Shown piece by piece: positions 17,604 to 32,301 of a DNA stretch of 64,000 nt. Within the stretch, counting starts at the first letter, position 1. Every line of letters begins with the position of its first letter. Origin of the DNA: Spirochaetia bacterium (lineage in GTDB: Bacteria; Spirochaetota; Spirochaetia; CADAEX01). Location of the stretch: contig CAXXHA010000003.1 in NCBI GenBank assembly GCA_963662265.2, positions 32,001 to 96,000 on the forward strand, read 5' to 3'. A program made the translations under genes and the position numbers. The notes beneath the pieces were generated by a model. The model made no database searches. It had not been told where the DNA came from and saw only the letters and a program-made list of their open reading frames with translations.

Positions 17604-18836
17604 GTGAGAACGGTAAATAATTCACATAATTCTTTATATCACGGAATTCTTTCTCTTGTTATTGAGAAGCTGGATTCCTTTATTATTATAGCGGATGAAG
17701 AAACTAATATCGTTATATGGAACAAGGCAGCTGAAAACTGTTTCTGTATACCGGAAGAATTTGCTGTAGGTAAAAAAGTATTTGATCTTCCTGTCATATG
17801 GGACAGGGATCAGATCCGGGAACAGCTTGAGCAGTCAGGCAGCATAAATGCTGACAGATTATTGAATCTGGAACTGGAAAGACCGGATAACCAGAAAAGA
17901 TGGATCTCTTTCAGGATATATAAAATTAATTCTTCGGAAGATAATAACAGTTCCTATATTTTTCTGGTTGGAAATGATGTTACTGAACAGACAAAAAGCT
18001 TTGAACTTCTTAAAGAGGACAACAAGTTCAAGGCAATCGGAGAACTTTCCGCCGGTATAGCTCATGAAATAAATTCCCCACTGCAGTATATCCATAATAA
18101 TCTCACTTTTATAAGCAGTGTGCTTGAATCCCATATGAATATTGAAGATAAGCTGCTCTCCATTCCGAAATCCCAGGACAGCAGCAGTCTGGAAAAATTT
18201 GTGAAGAACCTGAAAGAGGAAATTGAACTTCAGCAGACAGATGAAATATCATCTGAAGCAAGGGAAGCTATTGATCAGTCTATGGAGGGAGTGAGGCGAA
18301 TTGAAGTAATAGTAAATTCCCTGAAGAACTATGCTCACCCGGAAAAGGATGAACCTGTTGATGTCAATCTTATTTCAGTAGTGCAGGATTCAATTAACTT
18401 ATCGATAAATGAATGGAAATATGTGGCTGATATAGAAACTGATTTTCCTTCTTACCCTGTAATTATAAAAGGTTATCCGACATATTTAAGCCAGGTAATT
18501 GTCAATATTCTTGTAAATGCGGGGCACGCAATCGAGGAGCTCCGTGTAATAAAAGATATTAAGGGCCTGATTAAACTGAATGTAAGTACAGGCGACGGGA
18601 TGGCTGGAATCCGAATTGAAGATAATGGTATAGGCATGAGGGAGGAAGTCAGGAGCAGAATATTCGAGCCGTTTTTTACTACAAAGAGAATTGGAAAAGG
18701 GACAGGCCAGGGGCTTGCAATTGCCTACTCAATTATTGCCAATAAGCACATGGGACAGATAACATGTGAATCCACTGTTGGTGAAGGCTCTGCTTTTTAC
18801 ATAGAGCTGCCGGTTGATATGAATGATGGGAAATAA
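17604..18836 (+). CDS. PAS-domain sensor histidine kinase (NtrB-like, cytoplasmic)
   Basis: PAS WNKAAE; AGIAHEINSPL, NILVNA, DNGIG, FEPFFTTK, GTGQGL. Confidence 0.93.
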   Translation: MRTVNNSHNSLYHGILSLVIEKLDSFIIIADEETNIVIWNKAAENCFCIPEEFAVGKKVFDLPVIWDRDQIREQLEQSGSINADRLLNLELERPDNQKRWISFRIYKINSSEDNNSSYIFLVGNDVTEQTKSFELLKEDNKFKAIGELSAGIAHEINSPLQYIHNNLTFISSVLESHMNIEDKLLSIPKSQDSSSLEKFVKNLKEEIELQQTDEISSEAREAIDQSMEGVRRIEVIVNSLKNYAHPEKDEPVDVNLISVVQDSINLSINEWKYVADIETDFPSYPVIIKGYPTYLSQVIVNILVNAGHAIEELRVIKDIKGLIKLNVSTGDGMAGIRIEDNGIGMREEVRSRIFEPFFTTKRIGKGTGQGLAIAYSIIANKHMGQITCESTVGEGSAFYIELPVDMNDGK

Positions 18837-20080
18837 TATTAACAGTTCACATCCATGGTTGCCCGGAGGAGATTATTACCAGACTGCTCTTGATAATTTT
18901 CCTGATATTGTAATTATCCTTAACTGCAGGCTTGAGCTTGAATATTTAAACAGAATAGGATTGGAAATATATAAAACTGACATTGTCAGATCAGGATTTA
19001 CCATCAAAGAGCTGTTCCCTGATGCTGATGATCTGCCGGAAAAGCTGATGCAGTTGAAATCAGGCAGATTTTTGAGTAATTATGAAATTATAAACAGCCG
19101 CGGCGATGGGAAAAAATACAGTTTTGTTTCCGCCGGAATTTTTAAAGACTGTATTACAGGTGAAGAAAAATATCTTCTTTTTGTCAAAGACATGACATCT
19201 GAAATAAATGAATTTGCCAAACAGATCAAGTCAAATATTGAACTGATAAACAGCAATGAAATGCTTAAGAAAAAATATGCGGATTTAATTATAGAAAACA
19301 GGATGTCTTCGATCGGGCAGCTTGTCGGCCGGTATAGCACATGAAATAAACAATCCTCTCGGATATATAAAAAGTAATTTCAATGTTCTTACAGAAAATA
19401 TTGAAATACTTGAAAAATATATCTCTCTTCTTAAAAGCAGTTCTTTAAATTCTGAAATTACAGAATTTGCTGATAAAAACAATATTCAGGAAATATTTGA
19501 TGATCTTGAGGATATCAGAAAAGAAACAAACCATGGGATTTCAAAAATAAAAACAATAATTGACAGCCTGGGAAGCTTTTCCCATACAAATATTCTTGAG
19601 AAATATGAACAGGTCAATATTAATGATTCTATTGAAAATATGCTTGTTATAACTGAGAATCAATACAAATATGATATTGAAGTGATATACCGTCCGGGAC
19701 AGGTGCAGGACACTTACTGTATGGTCTCAGAGATAAATCAGGCTTTTCTCAATATTTTCATGAATGCTGTGGAAAATACACGTAAAAGCAAGTCAGAGAA
19801 AATAATAATTATTGAAACCTGGATGAGTGATAATATGATTTATATTTCTTTTGAAAATCATGGCGATTCTGTTGATGAAGCAGATCTTGAGAAAGTATTC
19901 AATCCTTTTTTTACTACTAAAAAAACCGGAGAAGGGATGGGGCTTGGTCTTACAATTGTTCAGGATATTATCCGGGACAGGCATCAGGGAAGTATAGTCT
20001 TAACCAATACAGATAACGGTGTATGTGTTAAGGCCTCAATTCCCGTTATTGAATATTCGGAGGATACTTATGGAACATAA
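18823..20080 (+). CDS. PAS-domain sensor histidine kinase (frameshift near 19322)
   Basis: PAS-like N-terminus; SIGQL/SAGIAHEINNPL, NIFMNA, FNPFFTTK, GMGLGL. Confidence 0.88.
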
Positions 20081-20979
20081 CATCTTGTTTGTTGATGATG
20101 AAGTAAATGTTGTAAAAGGAATAAAGAGGCTGTTTCTGCGGACAGATTACAAGGTATTTATTGAAACAGACTGCAGAAAAGCGCTTGAAATAATTAAAGA
20201 AAACAGAATTAGTGTTCTTGTTTCTGACATGAGAATGCCAGAAATGAACGGAGTTAAGTTTATAAAACTTGCCGATGAAATAGATCCCATGGTTGTCAAG
20301 ATAATACTGTCAGGGTATTCAGATATTGATGATATCATGTCTGCCATCAATGAAGGTCATATATACAGCTACATTACAAAACCCTGGCATGATGAAGGTC
20401 TGAAACTGCTTATATCCAATTCCTGTGATTATTATGAAAAAAAAATCAGGGAAAAGGAGCTTATTGCTGAACTGAAGAAAAAACAGAAACAGCTTGTAGA
20501 TATGAATAAAAACCTTGAAAAAATTGTTGAGGAAAGGACAAAGGAGATAGCTGAGACAAATAATATACTGAACCTGATTATCAAAGGTTCTGACAGGGAA
20601 ACAATATATTCCAGTATTGCTGAAAATATCAAGCAAATAAACAGAAGAGGCGCTTCTGTTCTTGTGATGGAAAACAGCAATGCTCAGTACTACGGGGATG
20701 AAAATATCACTGTGGATAAACCGGAAGATATAAAAAAGTCTGAACAGGCTTTTGAATATAAAGATCTGGTTGTTTTTCCGATTACCTATTCAGGAGAACT
20801 TGTAGGAGCCTTCCTTCTGAAAAATGATATGAGTCTTGATATCTCAATAACTGAAAAAACGGATATCATCATTTAAATCTGCCGCCAAGCTGTATATGAC
20901 ACAGCGCTTTCTTCTCAGTGATTCGGGAGGATTTATCAATAATATTGATAAAATGATAGGTGAGTTGTCTGATGAATGA
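20070..20979 (+). CDS. Response regulator (REC + coiled coil + GAF-like tail; frameshift near 20865)
   Basis: FVDDE, SDMRMP, LSGY, KPW; GGAGG RBS before 20070; shifted frame ends in an ATGA overlap with the next gene. Confidence 0.88.
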
Positions 20980-24719: not shown

Positions 24720-26132
24720 TTATTTTTTTACAATAGTTTTTTCCGGAGCATCAAAAACCATTGTTGCTCCCTCAATATTGATTACATCCCCGGGTTTCAG
24801 TACCCGTTTTTTTACAGCCCTGTTGTTAACCCTTACCTCATTGCTTGAAACAAGTGTGTAGCTGTCTGTTTTTTCATCCCTTACTATTGTCGCATGTGAT
24901 TCCCTGATTGACGGAATCCCTGTTATTGTATAATCAGCAGATGCTGATCCTCCGATTACAGTATTCTGTGACGAGATAAGCATTGTCTTCTCAAGAGCCC
25001 TTCCTCTTCCCCGGCCTGAAAGCAGCTGTGTCAGTTCCGCCTGATGCGCCTCTTTTTCCAGTTTAAGGAACAGCAATACAGCAAGTATTATTACACCTGT
25101 AATTATAAGAATAAGGGCGGGAAGTGGTGAACTGAGACTTCCTGTTCCGAATATAAGTGCCGGTGAATATGACATGCTGTCATCTGCCGTATTATTGAGA
25201 TTCACATCAACTGAAGGAGCCTTTGAAAAAGTAACAGGAACCCTGACTCTTATTCTGAACTCCTCATTTATGCTCTTTCTTATATTTTCATAAACACCTG
25301 TGAGTTCCTCTTCATTTGATGCATCGAAAACTCGTCCTCCCGATGTTACAGCTATCTCAGCAAGGGGGATGTCTTTCTCTTTTGAAAAATTCACGGCATA
25401 AAGTGTTACTTCGTTTTCGGAAAGCGCTTCTGCTGCCTGACCAGGCAGGTAACTTTTATCTCCGAGTTCAGGGTGCTGTTTTCCCGATACCTTGAAGTAC
25501 GGGTAATTCTCTCCATCGGAGAGAAGTATAATTGCTTTCCTTCCGGCAGTTTTTCCCATTTCTCCTGCAGCCTTTATTATTGTGTAATAAAGCTCTGTAT
25601 ATGATTCCTCCCTGGTCGGTTTTTCAATTGTCTCAAATATATCGTTTATGCTGCCCAGGTTCACGCCTGGCTGAGCGAGCAGGGAGAAATCCCTGTTGAA
25701 AACAGCAACACCCCCAGAGTCCCTGTCCTGATCAAGTCTGGAAAAAAAGGTCCTTGCAGCCCTGACTGCAGCTGAAATCCTTTCAGTTTCCGGATCTTTA
25801 TCAGTTTTCTCATACATGCTTCCTGAATTATCCAGAAGCAGCATAAATGTAATTCCATCTGAGCTTTCACTGTTTTTTCCGGTTTCAAGCACTTTAAGCG
25901 GCTTTGACCCGGATTCATCTGTCTGTGTAAGACTGATTGATGATCCGGGATTTTTTATTTCAAGAGGTTTGCCCCCCTTATCTGTTATCCTGACATAGCA
26001 GTCGACTGTTGAGGATATAAAAAGCCTGGAAGTATCAAGCTGTGATATTGATATATTTTCCCCCCATGCAGGAGAAGATGCGATTAACATGATAAAAGCT
26101 GTTTTTAATATTGATTCAAATGTTTTTCTCAT
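24720..26132 (-). CDS. Exported vWA domain - TM - cytoplasmic FHA-like protein
   Basis: Signal peptide; MIDAS DNSGS, T, SDG; one TM (LPALILIITGVIILAVLLFL); C-terminal FHA fold (VIGG...HATI...VNN...LKPGDVI). Confidence 0.88.
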   Translation of the reverse strand: MRKTFESILKTAFIMLIASSPAWGENISISQLDTSRLFISSTVDCYVRITDKGGKPLEIKNPGSSISLTQTDESGSKPLKVLETGKNSESSDGITFMLLLDNSGSMYEKTDKDPETERISAAVRAARTFFSRLDQDRDSGGVAVFNRDFSLLAQPGVNLGSINDIFETIEKPTREESYTELYYTIIKAAGEMGKTAGRKAIILLSDGENYPYFKVSGKQHPELGDKSYLPGQAAEALSENEVTLYAVNFSKEKDIPLAEIAVTSGGRVFDASNEEELTGVYENIRKSINEEFRIRVRVPVTFSKAPSVDVNLNNTADDSMSYSPALIFGTGSLSSPLPALILIITGVIILAVLLFLKLEKEAHQAELTQLLSGRGRGRALEKTMLISSQNTVIGGSASADYTITGIPSIRESHATIVRDEKTDSYTLVSSNEVRVNNRAVKKRVLKPGDVINIEGATMVFDAPEKTIVKK

Positions 26133-26142
26133 TTCTTTCTCC

Positions 26143-27030
26143 TTAACGCGCAGGCAGGAACAGGAGTTTCACACTTCCTATCTGTATGACATCTTCATAC
26201 TGTAGACGCTTCTTACCTGTTTTTTCCTCATTTATGAAAACTTCCCCCTCAAGTGATTCAAGTACTACTTCATCCCTTGTTGAGACAAAAAGAGCATGGC
26301 TGCCTTTAAGTCCAGAGTAATCCTCAAAATCAATTGCACTTTTTTTGTCAGATCCCAGAACTGTTTTTTTCATAATCAGAACATATTCCTTGCCCCTGAC
26401 AGGGCCTGTCAGCACTTTGAGCATTCCGAAGGCTTTCACCGATTCAAACAGCGAATAGAAAAGCCCTATTGAACCTCCCATGATAAGGAAGCCTGTTCCT
26501 CTTGCTGCAAATCCGCTTTTCATGAAAGTTGTTATGAATTCAAGAACAGCTCCCCCTGCAAATCCTCCGCTTAATCCTCCTACCACTCCGATCCATACCC
26601 TGTTAGGTGACCGGCTTCTTATCCCCTCTATTGCTCCTACTACAGCTCCCAGAATCATCCATCCGACAGCCCTGCTGATCGGTAGTATCAGATTTTCCGC
26701 AGTTTTCAATGTGAATATATCAGAGCTGATAAGCGCACTCAGAAGACCCTGTATCAGAAGAACGACAAGAATCCCGGACGCTGCTCCTGTTGCAGCCCCT
26801 GCAAGGCCTCCCTGTATACTCCTCTTCCTGTCTGAAACAAGAATCCCCTCCGCTGTTCCGAAACTGAATCCGAAAAAGAGTCCAAGCAGGGCACCTTCTG
26901 AAAGGGAGAGAACCAGGTAGCCGCCTATTCTGCTTCCTGCAAGGAGCAGCAGTTCCATGCTTCCCCATGCGCAGAGTGCCCCTGCAAGCCCCAGTATTAC
27001 CATCAGTATTTTTCTTATTATTAAATTCAT
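26143..27030 (-). CDS. Multi-TM glycine-rich membrane protein with a C-terminal FHA-like domain
   Basis: About 6 Gly-rich TM helices, then LTGP..GKEY.L...VLGS...HA...FIN...LQYEDVIQIG. Confidence 0.85.
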   Translation of the reverse strand: MNLIIRKILMVILGLAGALCAWGSMELLLLAGSRIGGYLVLSLSEGALLGLFFGFSFGTAEGILVSDRKRSIQGGLAGAATGAASGILVVLLIQGLLSALISSDIFTLKTAENLILPISRAVGWMILGAVVGAIEGIRSRSPNRVWIGVVGGLSGGFAGGAVLEFITTFMKSGFAARGTGFLIMGGSIGLFYSLFESVKAFGMLKVLTGPVRGKEYVLIMKKTVLGSDKKSAIDFEDYSGLKGSHALFVSTRDEVVLESLEGEVFINEEKTGKKRLQYEDVIQIGSVKLLFLPAR

Positions 27031-27045: not shown

Positions 27046-28629
27046 TTATTCCCTGTACAGTCCCGCCTGAAGAACCATAACATCCTGGCTGTTGTTAATT
27101 TTTAGTGAAAAGATTTTATCCCTGTATCCGGATGCTTTTACAAGTATTTTTATTACTCTTCCGGACATCAGTCTTTCAGCCTCTTCAATAGCCACCCATT
27201 TATTTCCCTCTCTGAGAAATATTTCCGCTTCGGAAATGATGTCATCTCCTGTGACTGCATCCCTGACATTCGGAATAAATTTCAGAGGCTGCGGATCTCT
27301 TTTGTGCCTGTAGTAAGTCACAGCTTCTCCGCCCCTGGTCTTTGATTTTTTCCATGGTTCGACAGTGAATGAGTTCCAGAAAACTTCGTTTGAAGCTGTA
27401 ATTTTCACCCTGTAGTTACCTTGCTTCAGAAAAACCGGAAGTGAAGTGACTGATGAAAATGATTCGCTGCTGTCGTTAATTAAAAAGAGAGGCATGTCAT
27501 CAACATCAGGTATTTTTTTATCATCATCAACAAAAATTGATATATTTACAGAATCTGCATCAAGAGGAGGAATATCGGCAGGTGTTTTTACAGAAAACAC
27601 AACTCTTCCGTATGTATCAGGAAACAGAAGTCCCCTGTACAGCTTGAAATTATATACAGCTGATCCTGCTGTGAGAAAAATAAGCAGAAGCACTGATGCT
27701 GCAGTTATTTTCAATCCTTTCCTCTTAAGCTTTATTCTTTCAGGGATTGTGATTTCCTTTACCTGAGCTGCCTCCGCAGTACTCTGAACAAGCTGTTCTG
27801 AGTTCCATTTCTTTATTGTTTTTTCAAGCAGCAGAATAACAGGATCGAGATTTTTGTATCTCTTTTCCCTGTTTGTTCTCATGGCTTTCCTTATGAAGCG
27901 GAGCAGGTTCCTGTCAATTCCCGGTATTATCTTGTCCGGTGAAGTATATTTACCTGTCTGTATGTTTTTCATCAGTTCGGGTGAGTAGCTGCCGGGAAAA
28001 GGTTTTTTCCCTGTGAGCATCTCATATGCCAGTACTCCAAGTGAGTATATATCTGCCCTGAGATCAACGTTGCGTGAATCTTTAAACTGTTCGGGAGGCA
28101 TATACCCCGGAGTCCCGAGTGTCATCCCGTCAATAGTAAGCCCCTCTTCCTGGCTCTCTTCCGATGAGGCAATTCCGAAGTCTACAATTTTGACAGCGCC
28201 CTCTTTTGAAACAAGTATGTTTGCAGGCTTTATATCCCTGTGAACAACTTTTTTTGAATGTGCATATTTAAGGGCTCTTGCAGTATTCAGAAGTATGTAT
28301 GCTGCAAGGCTTGAGTGGATATAGCGGTTGTTCAGTATCATCTCTTCGATTGACATTCCGTCAACATATTCCATGACAAGGTAATATGATGATCCCTCTT
28401 TAAAATGATCATACATGCTTACTATATGATCATGTCTGAAATCCATCAGTATTCTTGCTTCCCGCTTAAATCTCTCTGTTATCGCTTTCCTGCTGGAGAG
28501 GGTCAGCTTCTTGATAATTACCGGCCGCTTGAGGGTGGGGTGCTCAGCCTTGAATACTGCGCCCATTCCCCCCTTTGCAATAAGTGATTCAATCTCATAT
28601 TTTCCTATTGATTCAGGTAATTTTGCCAT
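27046..28629 (-). CDS. Hanks-type Ser/Thr protein kinase with a TM and an extracytoplasmic domain
   Basis: AKGGMG, IIK, RFKREA, HRDIKPAN, DFG, GTPGYMPPEQ, DIYSLG; one TM; ATG 28629 abuts the upstream stop codon. Confidence 0.95.
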   Translation of the reverse strand: MAKLPESIGKYEIESLIAKGGMGAVFKAEHPTLKRPVIIKKLTLSSRKAITERFKREARILMDFRHDHIVSMYDHFKEGSSYYLVMEYVDGMSIEEMILNNRYIHSSLAAYILLNTARALKYAHSKKVVHRDIKPANILVSKEGAVKIVDFGIASSEESQEEGLTIDGMTLGTPGYMPPEQFKDSRNVDLRADIYSLGVLAYEMLTGKKPFPGSYSPELMKNIQTGKYTSPDKIIPGIDRNLLRFIRKAMRTNREKRYKNLDPVILLLEKTIKKWNSEQLVQSTAEAAQVKEITIPERIKLKRKGLKITAASVLLLIFLTAGSAVYNFKLYRGLLFPDTYGRVVFSVKTPADIPPLDADSVNISIFVDDDKKIPDVDDMPLFLINDSSESFSSVTSLPVFLKQGNYRVKITASNEVFWNSFTVEPWKKSKTRGGEAVTYYRHKRDPQPLKFIPNVRDAVTGDDIISEAEIFLREGNKWVAIEEAERLMSGRVIKILVKASGYRDKIFSLKINNSQDVMVLQAGLYRE

Positions 28630-28630
28630 T

Positions 28631-29653
28631 TTACTTACTCTCCGGTTGTTTTGTATTATCAATATAATGCAGACCAAAATTATTTTCAAAGCCTGATGCA
28701 GTTTTGAGGAAAACAACAGGATATCTTAGCGGATTATGTATCTGAATATATTTTCCGCCGGCCCTCAATCTGTACATTTCAGTCACAGGCCTGTGCCCGC
28801 CGTACATCATTGCCTTATTGTTGCCCGGAAAGTATTCATCGAGGTATTTTTTTACAGTACCTTGTTCTGATTCCCCGTTGTCTGTCCATGTAAGATCATA
28901 TATTATTTTTCTCTTCTCATAACAGGATATAATTTCATCTCTTGTGTAATAATTTCTCGGTTCAGCATGAGTTATGCAGCAGAATTTTCCTACAGCCATT
29001 ACAGGCAGGAACTTTTCAAAATCATAGTACCTGCTTAAGACAGATGTTCCCAGGAAACGCTTTGACCAGTTTTTCACCATTTCCCCTTCTGATGTGAATT
29101 TGGCAAATGACCGGTTGTCTTCTGTTGTCTCATTCATGATATTTTCATGATTGCCCTTTAGAAAATGAAAATTTTCACAGAAGCGTGTCTTCCAGTCCAT
29201 GACAATAAGCATCAGATTGAGACTGTCTCTCATTTCACTGTCTATTGCCTTGTGCCTGACAAATCCCCCCCTGTATTCACTGTATGCTTCAATCCATCTT
29301 GCTCTTTTCAGCCCCTCGCTGTGAAAACCGTCTCCGGCACATACTACCTGTATTTTACCCTCTTCAAGCAGCTTTAAAACAGGCTTATCCATTCCGGGCG
29401 GAATCCAGTATGCAAGTGTCCTCATGTAATCCACTCTTGCATGCAGATCAGGCACAATAACAAGAGGCAGGTCTTTAAGCTGAATGAGTCCGCCCGGATA
29501 TCCGCCCCTGTCACGGGGACGGATAAGCGGATTTTCATTATCCATTACTTTTTTAACCTGCTTAAGTGCGGCCTGCAGTTTTTCAGGTTCCGGGTATTTC
29601 CTTCTCCTGATCAGTTCCTCCAGCCGGAAATAAGCGCTGCCTGTTTTTAACAT
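28631..29653 (-). CDS. Calcineurin-like metallophosphoesterase (putative phosphatase)
   Basis: PDLHA, GDGFH, GNHE, THA, GGH metal-binding motifs. Confidence 0.88.
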   Translation of the reverse strand: MLKTGSAYFRLEELIRRRKYPEPEKLQAALKQVKKVMDNENPLIRPRDRGGYPGGLIQLKDLPLVIVPDLHARVDYMRTLAYWIPPGMDKPVLKLLEEGKIQVVCAGDGFHSEGLKRARWIEAYSEYRGGFVRHKAIDSEMRDSLNLMLIVMDWKTRFCENFHFLKGNHENIMNETTEDNRSFAKFTSEGEMVKNWSKRFLGTSVLSRYYDFEKFLPVMAVGKFCCITHAEPRNYYTRDEIISCYEKRKIIYDLTWTDNGESEQGTVKKYLDEYFPGNNKAMMYGGHRPVTEMYRLRAGGKYIQIHNPLRYPVVFLKTASGFENNFGLHYIDNTKQPESK

Positions 29654-29662
29654 ATCTTTTTA

Positions 29663-30196
29663 TTATTCACTTATTAATGTTTTGTTTATTTCTATAAACT
29701 CATCTGTAAGCTGATGAGTGACCTGAGTTAGAAGTTCGTTTGCTTCTTCATATTCAATTGATTCCCTGACAATTGCTATTCTGTAAACAGGGGAGCTTTT
29801 ATCAATCGGCCCGTTTTTGAATTTTACAGCCTCATCAATGCTTATATCTTCTGCAAGCTGTGAATTACTCTGCTGAAGGAAATCCGGAACATCTGTCCTG
29901 AATCCGACACTTGTATATTCTGTCTGTCTTCCGTTTTCTTCAAGCGGTCCCAGTTTTATCAGCGAGCCTGAATAGGTCATTACAAGAGCTCCTCTAGTCT
30001 CTGATGCGGAAAAAGAATCCGCAGGTTCAAGTTCATTTTCCTCTATCTGTCTGTTGAAAACCTCATCTTTTTCAAGCCATCCGCCTGCCAGTATTTCAAG
30101 AGGATCTTCAGTGATGTCTGAAAGCTGTATATTGCCTGAAAGCTGTTTCAGGTGGTTCTGGACTCTTTCCGATACCTTAGAAAAATTGTTTTCCAT
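29663..30196 (-). CDS. Uncharacterised 177-aa protein (domain X), first gene of the kinase operon
   Basis: GAGGGAG RBS; homologous to the N-terminal domain of 30604-31485. Confidence 0.88.
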   Translation of the reverse strand: MENNFSKVSERVQNHLKQLSGNIQLSDITEDPLEILAGGWLEKDEVFNRQIEENELEPADSFSASETRGALVMTYSGSLIKLGPLEENGRQTEYTSVGFRTDVPDFLQQSNSQLAEDISIDEAVKFKNGPIDKSSPVYRIAIVRESIEYEEANELLTQVTHQLTDEFIEINKTLISE

Positions 30197-30603
30197 TTTA
30201 TTTCTCCCTCAGCAGATAATCTGCTTTTTTAAACTACCAATACGGTTTAAAATGTAATTACATATTTTCTGTTAAGCACATACTCCGGGGTATGTGCTTC
30301 TGATAGGAATGGATTGTATGTCGGGTCTGAGACTCAAAAACCATTCATATCCAAACCTTTCAATTTTTTTAAATTATGTTGCAAGCTACGGGATCAGACC
30401 CTCCTTGCGAATAAATTAATTTATAACACAGATAATACACCATTTTCCAGAAATGTCCATAAAAATCGGTGAAATTTGAAAAAAATATGATATAATCATG
30501 AAAAACGGCTTGTTTCAGGTATTTTTTTACTGTTAAGGTATGTAAAATACATGAAAAGCCAGTTAAAAAAGACCTTGAAAAAGTCTTATACAGGAGTTGT
30601 AGT

Positions 30604-31485
30604 ATGCAGATTGAAAAGCTGCCTGAAGCAGTACAGGCACATCTTTTGCATTTAATCAGGAGTTCTGCCCTCCCTGATACTCCGGAATTCCGCTCCCGTC
30701 TTGCCGGAATCTGGAACAGGAAATGCACCTTGTTTGAACAGCAGATAAATTATCTTGAAATGGAGCTTGTTGATAAAGTTGATACAAACGAATCAATGGC
30801 AATGATAATTCTCACATACTCAGGTTCTATAATAAGTATAGGCCCTCTTAAGGAAACCAGGGATGTTGAATATGCGAGTATACACTTGAGGGCGGATGTT
30901 CCGAAATCAGTTGTCGTGACTGAGACAAATATCGACGGAGAGCTTCTCCGCGACAAGCCGGTATGTTTTAAAACAGGCGCAATAAAGAAGACTTCTCCCG
31001 CCTTTATGATAGCTGTTTGCGACAGTAATCTTGATCCCTCTGTTCAGTCTGAAAGAATCAGGGAAGCAATGATTTATCTTACAAACGGATTTCTCAAGAT
31101 AAACCAGTCGATACATATTGACCGTAAGAGTGTGCCTGATCATTTTACCGCGAAATCAATGGCAAGATATATTGCGAAAAGACATGACCTGACAGGTGCT
31201 GCTGTGCAGAATATTCTGGAAGATTTTTACTATCTTATTGAAACAGGAATGCTTCTCGGGGAAACTGTTCCGCTCGGCAAAATAGGACGGCTCTCGCTGA
31301 AGAAGAAAGAGGCCCAGAAAGCCAGAATAATAAGGCACCCTGAAACAGGAGAGGAGATTACTGTCAGGTCTAAGCCTTCAATGTATGTTCCCAGGATATC
31401 GTTCAGCAGCCATATAAAAGATAAGGCAGCTTCCCTTCCTGATGACAGCAATTCAATAATCAGGATGGACTATGATGATGAATGA
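30604..31485 (+). CDS. Domain X fused to a C-terminal HU/IHF-like DNA-binding domain
   Basis: AGGAG RBS; C-terminus TAKSMARYIAK...GETVPLGKIGRL...ARIIRHPETGEEITV...PRISFS matches the HU/IHF fold. Confidence 0.88.
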   Translation: MQIEKLPEAVQAHLLHLIRSSALPDTPEFRSRLAGIWNRKCTLFEQQINYLEMELVDKVDTNESMAMIILTYSGSIISIGPLKETRDVEYASIHLRADVPKSVVVTETNIDGELLRDKPVCFKTGAIKKTSPAFMIAVCDSNLDPSVQSERIREAMIYLTNGFLKINQSIHIDRKSVPDHFTAKSMARYIAKRHDLTGAAVQNILEDFYYLIETGMLLGETVPLGKIGRLSLKKKEAQKARIIRHPETGEEITVRSKPSMYVPRISFSSHIKDKAASLPDDSNSIIRMDYDDE

Positions 31486-31782: not shown

Positions 31783-32301
31783 TTAAATAAACTCTGCAAT
31801 TTCATCAAGCTGCTTTCTCTTTTTGTCACTTTTCTTTACAAATCCTTTCGGTGTGTATCCGAGAGGTGTTATCACGAAAACCGTTTCCCCCTCTTCGAGT
31901 TCAAGCACTTTTTTAAGAATATCAGGATCGAATGCTGCAATCCAGCATGTCCCTATCTCCTCGTTTTCCGCGGCAAGAATCATATGGTCCATGGCTATTG
32001 TAAGATCTGTTTCAAGCGAATTGTAATTATCATACCCTCTTGACCATGCCTCTGATCTCCTCCCTTTTACTATCAGTATGTGGGGTGCATCGTGAAACCA
32101 CTCCCTGCTGTAGCATTGTCGCACCTTTGAAAGCATTTCTTCTGATGATACCACGACAAATTTCCACGGCTGCCTGTTTGCTGCCGATGGAGCTATTCTG
32201 CCGGCCTCAAGTATTTTCCTGATAATCTCTTCAGGTATTTTTCTCTCAGGATCATAACTCCTTATGCTTTCCCTTTCAGATATGACTTTGTAAAAATCCA
32301 T
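31783..32301 (-). CDS. Nitroreductase family protein
   Basis: RESIRSY, APSAANRQPWKF, LAAENEEIGTCWI. Confidence 0.93.
   Translation of the reverse strand: MDFYKVISERESIRSYDPERKIPEEIIRKILEAGRIAPSAANRQPWKFVVVSSEEMLSKVRQCYSREWFHDAPHILIVKGRRSEAWSRGYDNYNSLETDLTIAMDHMILAAENEEIGTCWIAAFDPDILKKVLELEEGETVFVITPLGYTPKGFVKKSDKKRKQLDEIAEFI

Follow-up and report, generated by a model that had tools for sequence, protein, structure and literature searches.

The 64,000-nt stretch of Spirochaetia bacterium DNA analysed here (the window: positions 32,001 to 96,000 of contig CAXXHA010000003.1 in GenBank assembly GCA_963662265.2) carries two divergently transcribed genes that share a protein domain, which we call X. 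The minus-strand gene encodes the domain on its own (free X), and the plus-strand gene encodes it in front of an HU/IHF-type DNA-binding domain (X-HU). An initial annotation, made from the DNA sequence alone, had described the two as a nearly gapless paralogue pair with about one third of their residues identical. A single BLASTP comparison bears this out: residues 7-174 of free X align with residues 5-170 of X-HU with 57 identities in 168 residues (34%), 2 gaps and an E-value of 2e-29. All six shared motifs picked out by hand at that time (VQxHL, LAGxWxxKxxxFxxQI, TYSGSxIxxGPL, EYxSxxxRxDVP, FKxGxIxKxSP and LTxxFxxIN) are contained in this alignment. Both genes have a ribosome-binding site of the AGGAG/GGGAG type, 7 nt ahead of the ATG. 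The source genome has exactly two copies of X, namely these two, as well as a single canonical HU of about 100 aa, which is encoded on a different contig.

The most informative fact about the pair, missed by the initial annotation, is that free X leads an operon and that X-HU is linked to this operon across many spirochaete families. Downstream of free X in the window, separated by spacers of 9, 1, 15 and 10 nt, follow on the minus strand the genes for a phosphatase, a kinase and two membrane proteins with FHA-like domains, here named TMFHA and VWAFHA (Table 1). We fetched 20 loci from different families, 19 of which contain a close free X, and placed the window proteins on them by tblastn. 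All 19 show the order X-(phosphatase)-kinase-TMFHA-VWAFHA on the same strand, the phosphatase being unmatched in one; three further genomes show the same operon order, again with the phosphatase unmatched in one. Overall, free X stands at the head of the operon in 22 out of 22 other genomes, with VWAFHA conserved in every one of them and the phosphatase not found in two. Among the first 19 loci, X-HU adjoins X divergently in 11, sits immediately upstream in the same orientation in one, lies convergently at the far end of the operon in four and elsewhere in the genome in three, so that it is beside the operon in 16.

Table 1. Genes, protein parts and intergenic features at the locus in the window, followed by the loci encoding X-Z proteins in other genomes.
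Feature	Position	Strand	Description
Free X	29663..30196	-	177 aa, single domain, first gene of the operon; open reading frame (ORF) and AlphaFold2 model
X-HU	30604..31485	+	293 aa; X domain, linker, HU/IHF domain and acidic tail
X-HU, X domain	30604-31107	+	Residues 1-168
X-HU, linker		+	Residues 169-182
X-HU, HU/IHF domain	31150-31431	+	Residues 183-276, followed by the acidic tail
PPP-like metallophosphatase	28631..29653	-	340 aa; begins 9 nt past the X stop codon
Membrane Hanks-type Ser/Thr kinase	27046..28629	-	Likely start ATG 28629, one base past the phosphatase stop codon
TMFHA	26143..27030	-	Polytopic membrane protein with C-terminal FHA-like domain; PF16697 36.6 bits, PF00498 23 bits
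VWAFHA	24720..26132	-	Hydrophobic N-terminus, vWA domain, one transmembrane segment, C-terminal FHA-like domain; PF13519 41.4 bits, PF00092 32 bits, PF00498 29.1 bits
Conserved intergenic core	30432..30497	.	66 bp; two back-to-back sigma-70-like promoter matches (promoter scan)
Minus-strand promoter match	30459-30432	-	Faces the X operon; TGGACA 30459-30454, 16-nt spacer, TATTAT 30437-30432
Plus-strand extended -10 promoter match	30469-30496	+	Faces X-HU; GTGAAA 30469-30474, 16-nt spacer, TG-TATAAT 30491-30496
X-Z	L064:9127-10053	-	
X-Z	L065:8194-9105	+	
X-Z	L066:9439-10449	-	
X-Z	L067:5077-5949	-	
X-Z	L068:10645-11586	-	

A maximum-likelihood tree was built from 48 X domains; those of X-HU proteins, 17 in number, form one clade (support 100/99), and the branching within this clade parallels that of the free X copies. 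The duplication of X is older than the split of these families, both copies having been inherited together since. To judge from the sequence searches, the six-gene module (X, phosphatase, kinase, TMFHA, VWAFHA and X-HU) is found only in Spirochaetota. There, 59 of the 401 sampled genomes, many of which are fragmented assemblies, match X, and about 32 of these show both the short and the long form, as judged by the lengths of the open frames. No instance of the module turned up in the large families f19 (0/75), f24 (0/38) and f22 (0/11). Within the window's own family it occurs in two of the 19 other genomes, and one genome of the same genus, 97% complete, gave no match with the query used.

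The phosphatase family is wider than X: it occurs in 91 of the 401 genomes, including 27 of the 50 in family f2, in which X, TMFHA and VWAFHA were not found. Among 10 phosphatase loci from genomes that lack a close X, nine hold a phosphatase-kinase pair and one the phosphatase alone, and no match to X, TMFHA or VWAFHA was obtained in any of them. Because all three are absent from these 10 loci, X travels with the genes for the FHA/vWA membrane proteins. The phosphatase and the Hanks-type kinase form a more widespread core pair (L074-L083, e.g., L074:4934-7562). At the locus of a metagenome relative (L084:1357-3485), the tblastn matches of X, the phosphatase and the kinase each fall into several pieces that lie in different frames, which suggests frameshifts caused by sequencing errors or by decay.

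The proteins encoded downstream of free X are recognisable to different degrees. The phosphatase matches PF00149 with 19.3 bits, below the cut-off of 21.5; a profile of 16 orthologues searched against PDB gave 47 matches, all of them PPP Ser/Thr phosphatases, the best being PP1 (E 3.9e-4), aligned over the GNHE region. Its invariant residues D69, H71, G107-D108, G167-N168-H169, H229 and G286-H287 make up the DxH, GD, GNH, H and GH motifs. The kinase domain is clear (Pkinase, E 1.4e-54), with HRD and DFG visible in the translation, and the protein has one hydrophobic segment at residues 309-329 followed by some 200 further residues, a tail that is predicted to face outward. The ORF list places the kinase start at TTG 28716 (region 28627-28716), a start that would give an 86-nt overlap with the phosphatase gene; the part that can be aligned with the orthologues starts at ATG 28629. 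In TMFHA the hydrophobic segments lie within residues 1-165, and the transmembrane segment of VWAFHA spans residues 337-355.

Domain X itself had been taken for an uncatalogued domain, and every search that we made agrees with this. It has no match in Pfam or NCBIfam. A word-indexed search returned 22 clusters of free X homologues and at least 279 X-HU homologues; where the source gives any name, it reads "hypothetical protein", "HU family DNA-binding protein" or "nucleoid DNA-binding protein", and the named sources are Spirochaetia/Spirochaetales, with Breznakiella homolactica for members of both families. A profile built from 17 X domains and run against 1.84 billion representatives retrieved 194 proteins at E<=1e-3, nearly all of them either about 175 aa (free) or about 280-300 aa long. 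A full-text literature search found no paper that describes domain X or its fusion to HU.

The AlphaFold2 model of free X is of good quality (predicted local distance difference test score, pLDDT, 89.5; predicted template modelling score, pTM, 0.85) and consists of a short helix, a long helix at residues 32-53, eight strands between residues 57 and 142 and a long C-terminal helix at 149-174. With this model, Foldseek yielded no PDB match at E<=1e-3 (best E 0.049, with template modelling (TM) scores of 0.17-0.26); a VIA-align scan of 48,161 chains reached at best Z 4.5, with none >=5, and the re-examination of 984 Foldseek candidates by VIA-align at best Z 3.7. The weak rows for PH-like, PrfA and galectin folds in these searches were rejected, as they were no different from noise. 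The X sequence profile against PDB had a best E-value of 0.032, and a search of the ESM Atlas with X a best score of 0.81. According to the tool's own note, Z 7-8 is typically attained in VIA-align even by models that have no clear match, and X is therefore unusually isolated in structure. Such isolation is no proof of a new fold.

Besides the free and the HU-fused form, there is a third architecture, X-Z, in which X precedes a conserved domain, Z, of about 125 aa with the motifs WIILxWF and YKWxESEKKxFDIGL. Z has no Pfam match, no PDB match (0 found) and an Atlas score of 0.76. Full-length X-Z occurs in five of the 401 genomes of the phylum sample and free ORFs consisting of Z only in six; the neighbourhoods of the X-Z genes are not conserved and do not include the kinase operon. 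One database representative of 701 aa (P0216) combines a signal peptide, a vWA domain, a transmembrane segment, X and Z in one protein. Its vWA-transmembrane part is 27% identical to VWAFHA of the window (E 1e-41), with X-Z replacing the FHA-like domain, an arrangement that would tie X to the cytoplasmic end of the VWAFHA protein; being one sequence only, P0216 could be either a genuine fusion or an artefact of gene calling. Also noted was a distant X-like protein that stands alone (L051:8286-8873, plus strand; E 1e-13 to 1e-17 against the X profile), with NGS replacing SGS. In families f13 and f27 this distant form adjoins a putative RNA methyltransferase, judged by eye, and housekeeping genes, outside the kinase operon.

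Residue conservation was assessed over 228 full-length, non-redundant X domains (76 free, 137 from X-HU and 15 from X-Z; residues are given in free X numbering). W40, K43, F47, S76, G77, S78, R90, Y94, S96, R100 and S135 are conserved at >=0.96 in both the free and the X-HU forms, and in X-Z most of them are fully conserved, with Y94 and R100 at 0.93 and S96 at 0.80. F167 and N171 likewise reach >=0.96 in the free and X-HU forms, and 0.87 in X-Z. In the model of X, S-G-S forms the turn between strands 70-74 and 79-86. The C-terminal helix, QxxRIREAxIFLTNGFxKIN, is highly conserved in X-HU and variable in free X. The polar constellation common to all architectures points to one common biochemical act, which may be the acceptance of a phosphoryl group, the binding of one or the binding of an anionic ligand.

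The initial annotation had noted that the HU part of X-HU retains the arm proline (RHPETG versus canonical RNPxTG), and the HU/IHF assignment is confirmed by a PF00216 match over residues 182-274 (43.5 bits against a cut-off of 22.4; E 3.8e-11; profile positions 2-88 of 90). In the AlphaFold2 model of X-HU (pLDDT 88.1), residues 1-168 have the same X topology as free X, the linker (169-182) is of low confidence, and the HU domain (183-276) has a pLDDT of 93-96 over most of its length, with helices 183-193, 198-217 and 269-276 and strands 228-235, 241-244, 251-254 and 260-267 composing the full HU fold. Foldseek with this model gave 26 PDB matches at E<=1e-3, the listed ones being of HU/IHF type with target-normalised TM scores of 0.63-0.79, and including Anabaena HU, IHF and Hbb. 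The arm is well kept in the 49 X-HU sequences compared: P246 in 44, R241 in 47, R or K at position 244 in 41, T248 in 46 and G249 in 45. Since the HU fold is intact, and the arm proline and the basic arm residues are kept, DNA binding by X-HU is plausibly retained.

These are features that X-HU shares with the HU/IHF family (PF00216), which includes the site-specific IHF and Borrelia Hbb. Canonical members stand alone with about 90-100 aa, whereas X-HU has an additional N-terminal domain of about 170 aa and a genetic link to a kinase operon, an architecture that is as unusual as had been supposed. HU domains fused to other domains are also known from the HU-HIG and HU-CCDC81 clades (Burroughs et al. 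2017, PMC5499826), where, as far as the available text of that article goes, the fused parts are C-terminal (winged helix-turn-helix, immunoglobulin-like, Gly-rich, or transmembrane plus SPOR/LysM), whereas the extra domain of X-HU is N-terminal and matches none of these. The same text states that multi-domain HU clades are without conserved operon links; the words kinase, FHA, vWA and phosphatase are absent from its main text, the architectures being listed in the supplements. Against PF18291 (HU-HIG), X-HU scores 22 bits, below the cut-off of 26.2.

The 407-bp spacer between the two X genes contains a conserved core with two promoter matches placed back to back (Table 1), whose -35 hexamers are 10 bp apart. 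We aligned the spacer with its counterparts in three relatives (70-82% protein identity), namely a contig from a metagenome and two genomes, of which one belongs to the same genus and the other to the same family. In the core, 45 out of 66 columns are invariant in the four genomes, and pairwise identity is 79-91%, versus 16-43% in the flanks. When an 18-nt word from the core was searched in 823 kb of DNA, every match with <=2 mismatches sat at this intergenic position. The core is also kept in a fifth genome, from another family, with proteins about 50% identical. In 12 divergent intergenic regions taken from distant families, a k-mer search returned A/T-tract words alone, slightly above shuffles; an operator common to all families was not found, the core having been seen in the window's family and one other. 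A loopless palindrome at 30274-30299, with arms of 13 nt that are 92% complementary, lies in what is presumably the 5' leader of the X operon; it was discarded as a candidate element, as it is not conserved in the nearest relative.

We read X as a signal-receiving or docking module of a membrane complex formed by the kinase, the phosphatase and the FHA/vWA proteins, X-HU as the DNA-binding output of this complex and free X as a competitor or adaptor, and we put the probability of this reading at roughly one half. The module would be cytoplasmic, and its invariant polar site (the T-x-S-G-S beta-hairpin with K43, R90, Y94, S96, R100, S135 and N171) would accept or bind a phosphoryl group. The initial annotation had considered the conserved Thr, Tyr and Ser residues as phospho-acceptors or parts of a ligand pocket, and this is reasonable, because the gene order of the family, in which a Ser/Thr-rich hairpin is conserved, links it to a Ser/Thr kinase and a phosphatase. 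A phosphoryl event on X-HU might then alter DNA binding or bending by the HU dimer. The 66-bp core would be its most obvious target, and binding there could make both transcription units self-regulating. Free X, which shares its message with the kinase and the phosphatase, may compete with X-HU for the same partners and so serve as a buffer, a decoy or an adaptor.

Hanks-type kinases are common in bacteria, and their route to DNA is mostly unclear; dedicated output proteins of such kinases, comparable to the response regulators of two-component systems, are to our knowledge rare. A bolder version, which we hold only tentatively and consider to be on the unlikely side, is that X is a receiver-type domain for Hanks Ser/Thr kinases, i.e., a modular phospho-switch with a new fold, occurring alone, like single-domain response regulators, or N-terminal to the HU and Z outputs. 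If so, X-HU would represent the first one-step "response regulator" that is dedicated to a bacterial Ser/Thr kinase pathway and acts via an HU-type DNA bender. More generally, if X is a phospho- or ligand-controlled switch, it would stand for a new domain family, a new class of regulated nucleoid-associated proteins and a tractable model for signalling from a kinase to the chromosome in free-living and gut spirochaetes, for which the conserved promoter core offers a ready test target.

A number of observations weigh against X as the receiving module of the kinase/phosphatase complex and X-HU as its output. T74 of the hairpin, present at 0.99 in free X, is not invariant in X-HU (0.80), and the strictly invariant residues are Ser, whereas Thr is the more frequent target of bacterial Hanks kinases. 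The invariant set of Lys, Arg, Ser, Tyr and Asn would fit a small-molecule anion pocket equally well as a phospho-switch. The two FHA-like domains have no Arg after the conserved Gly (the canonical GR) in 23 and 22 orthologues, respectively, and the Ser of the SxxH motif is kept in <60% of the orthologues; as the Arg is missing and the Ser poorly kept, classical phosphothreonine reading by both domains is doubtful. About 17 of the 59 genomes matching X have the short form only, without X-HU; most of these are fragmented assemblies, but one (G139) is in 2 contigs. HU proteins in general often bind DNA without sequence preference, so that the intergenic core may be just the two promoters and the site of another regulator.

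For HupB of Mycobacterium tuberculosis, we know of no conserved operon linkage. HupB is a precedent for X-HU as an output of the kinase, being also an HU-type protein under Hanks-kinase control: its DNA binding is lowered by phosphorylation by a Ser/Thr kinase (PMC4754617, citing Gupta et al. 2014). HupB is itself the kinase substrate, and the available part of that article mentions no dedicated receiver-type domain, whereas X-HU has an N-terminal domain and a free paralogue. The same parts list of FHA, vWA, Hanks-type kinase and PPP phosphatase makes up the archaellum network of Sulfolobus acidocaldarius (ArnA with FHA, ArnB with vWA, the kinase ArnC and PP2A), whose components control gene expression (PMC7472852). 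As described in the available sections of that source, the Arn network is archaeal, with soluble components and without an X domain or an HU output; the vWA and kinase proteins of the spirochaetes are membrane-anchored, and their FHA-like domains lack the canonical phosphothreonine-binding Arg. A bacterial operon that likewise joins vWA, Hanks kinase, FHA and phosphatase is DRA0331-DRA0334 of Deinococcus radiodurans (bioRxiv 10.64898/2026.01.23.701218). According to the portion available, its phosphatase is a PP2C with a KI-FHA domain, in contrast to the PPP-like one of the spirochaetes, and it comprises no X and no DNA-binding partner.

By a first alternative, which we regard as unlikely, X would sense a small molecule, such as a nucleotide or some other anionic metabolite, X-HU would act as a nucleoid protein under ligand control, and the kinase operon would only be co-regulated or would sense the same ligand via free X. 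The invariant set of two Arg, one Lys, several Ser, a Tyr and an Asn, together with a small-residue S-G-S hairpin, would be typical of phosphate or anion pockets; X-Z proteins and second free X copies occur away from any kinase operon, and the distant short X-like form lies among housekeeping genes. Against a sensor stand the position of free X, fixed at the head of the kinase operon in all 22 other genomes, and its absence from all 10 phosphatase loci without FHA/vWA genes; X also matched no known ligand-binding fold.

A lower probability still is given to the partner-switching model of the initial annotation, by which X would serve above all for dimerisation and free X would form pairs with its counterpart in X-HU, titrating X-HU off the DNA. 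The paralogues are co-inherited and usually adjacent, the long helices 32-53 and 149-174 of X could form an interface, and the C-terminal helix is far more conserved in X-HU than in free X. Yet a polar site that is conserved in all three architectures points beyond a mere interface. Classical partner-switching systems moreover have a STAS domain, an anti-sigma kinase and a PP2C, and Pfam and NCBIfam detected none of these among X and the operon proteins; the kinase is Hanks-type and the phosphatase PPP-like, instead of a HATPase-type anti-sigma kinase and a PP2C. A complex prediction of free X with residues 1-178 of X-HU, run with alignments, scored 0.00, which we count neither way.

That the cluster is a biological-conflict system against phages or mobile elements, with the kinase, vWA and FHA proteins as sensors of invasion and the HU fusion as an interceptor of foreign DNA, is very improbable, even though the kinase domain matches kinase-based defence models (PADLOC 2.0; PD-T4-6, E 1.4e-79), conflict systems containing vWA domains are described in the literature (PMC7159879, available text), multi-domain HU clades have been suggested to take part in conflict (PMC5499826, likewise), and presence in the window's family is patchy (2/19 other genomes): beyond the generic kinase domain there were 0 PADLOC matches for X, X-HU, the phosphatase and both FHA-like proteins, the operon is without a nuclease, toxin or NTPase effector, the parallel branching of the X-HU clade and free X across families fits vertical inheritance as a unit, and the G+C content (0.39-0.42) is unremarkable.

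Elsewhere in the window (17604-20876), a run of plus-strand ORFs includes, as read from the translations, histidine-kinase-like H-box motifs (HEINxPL) and a receiver-like protein.

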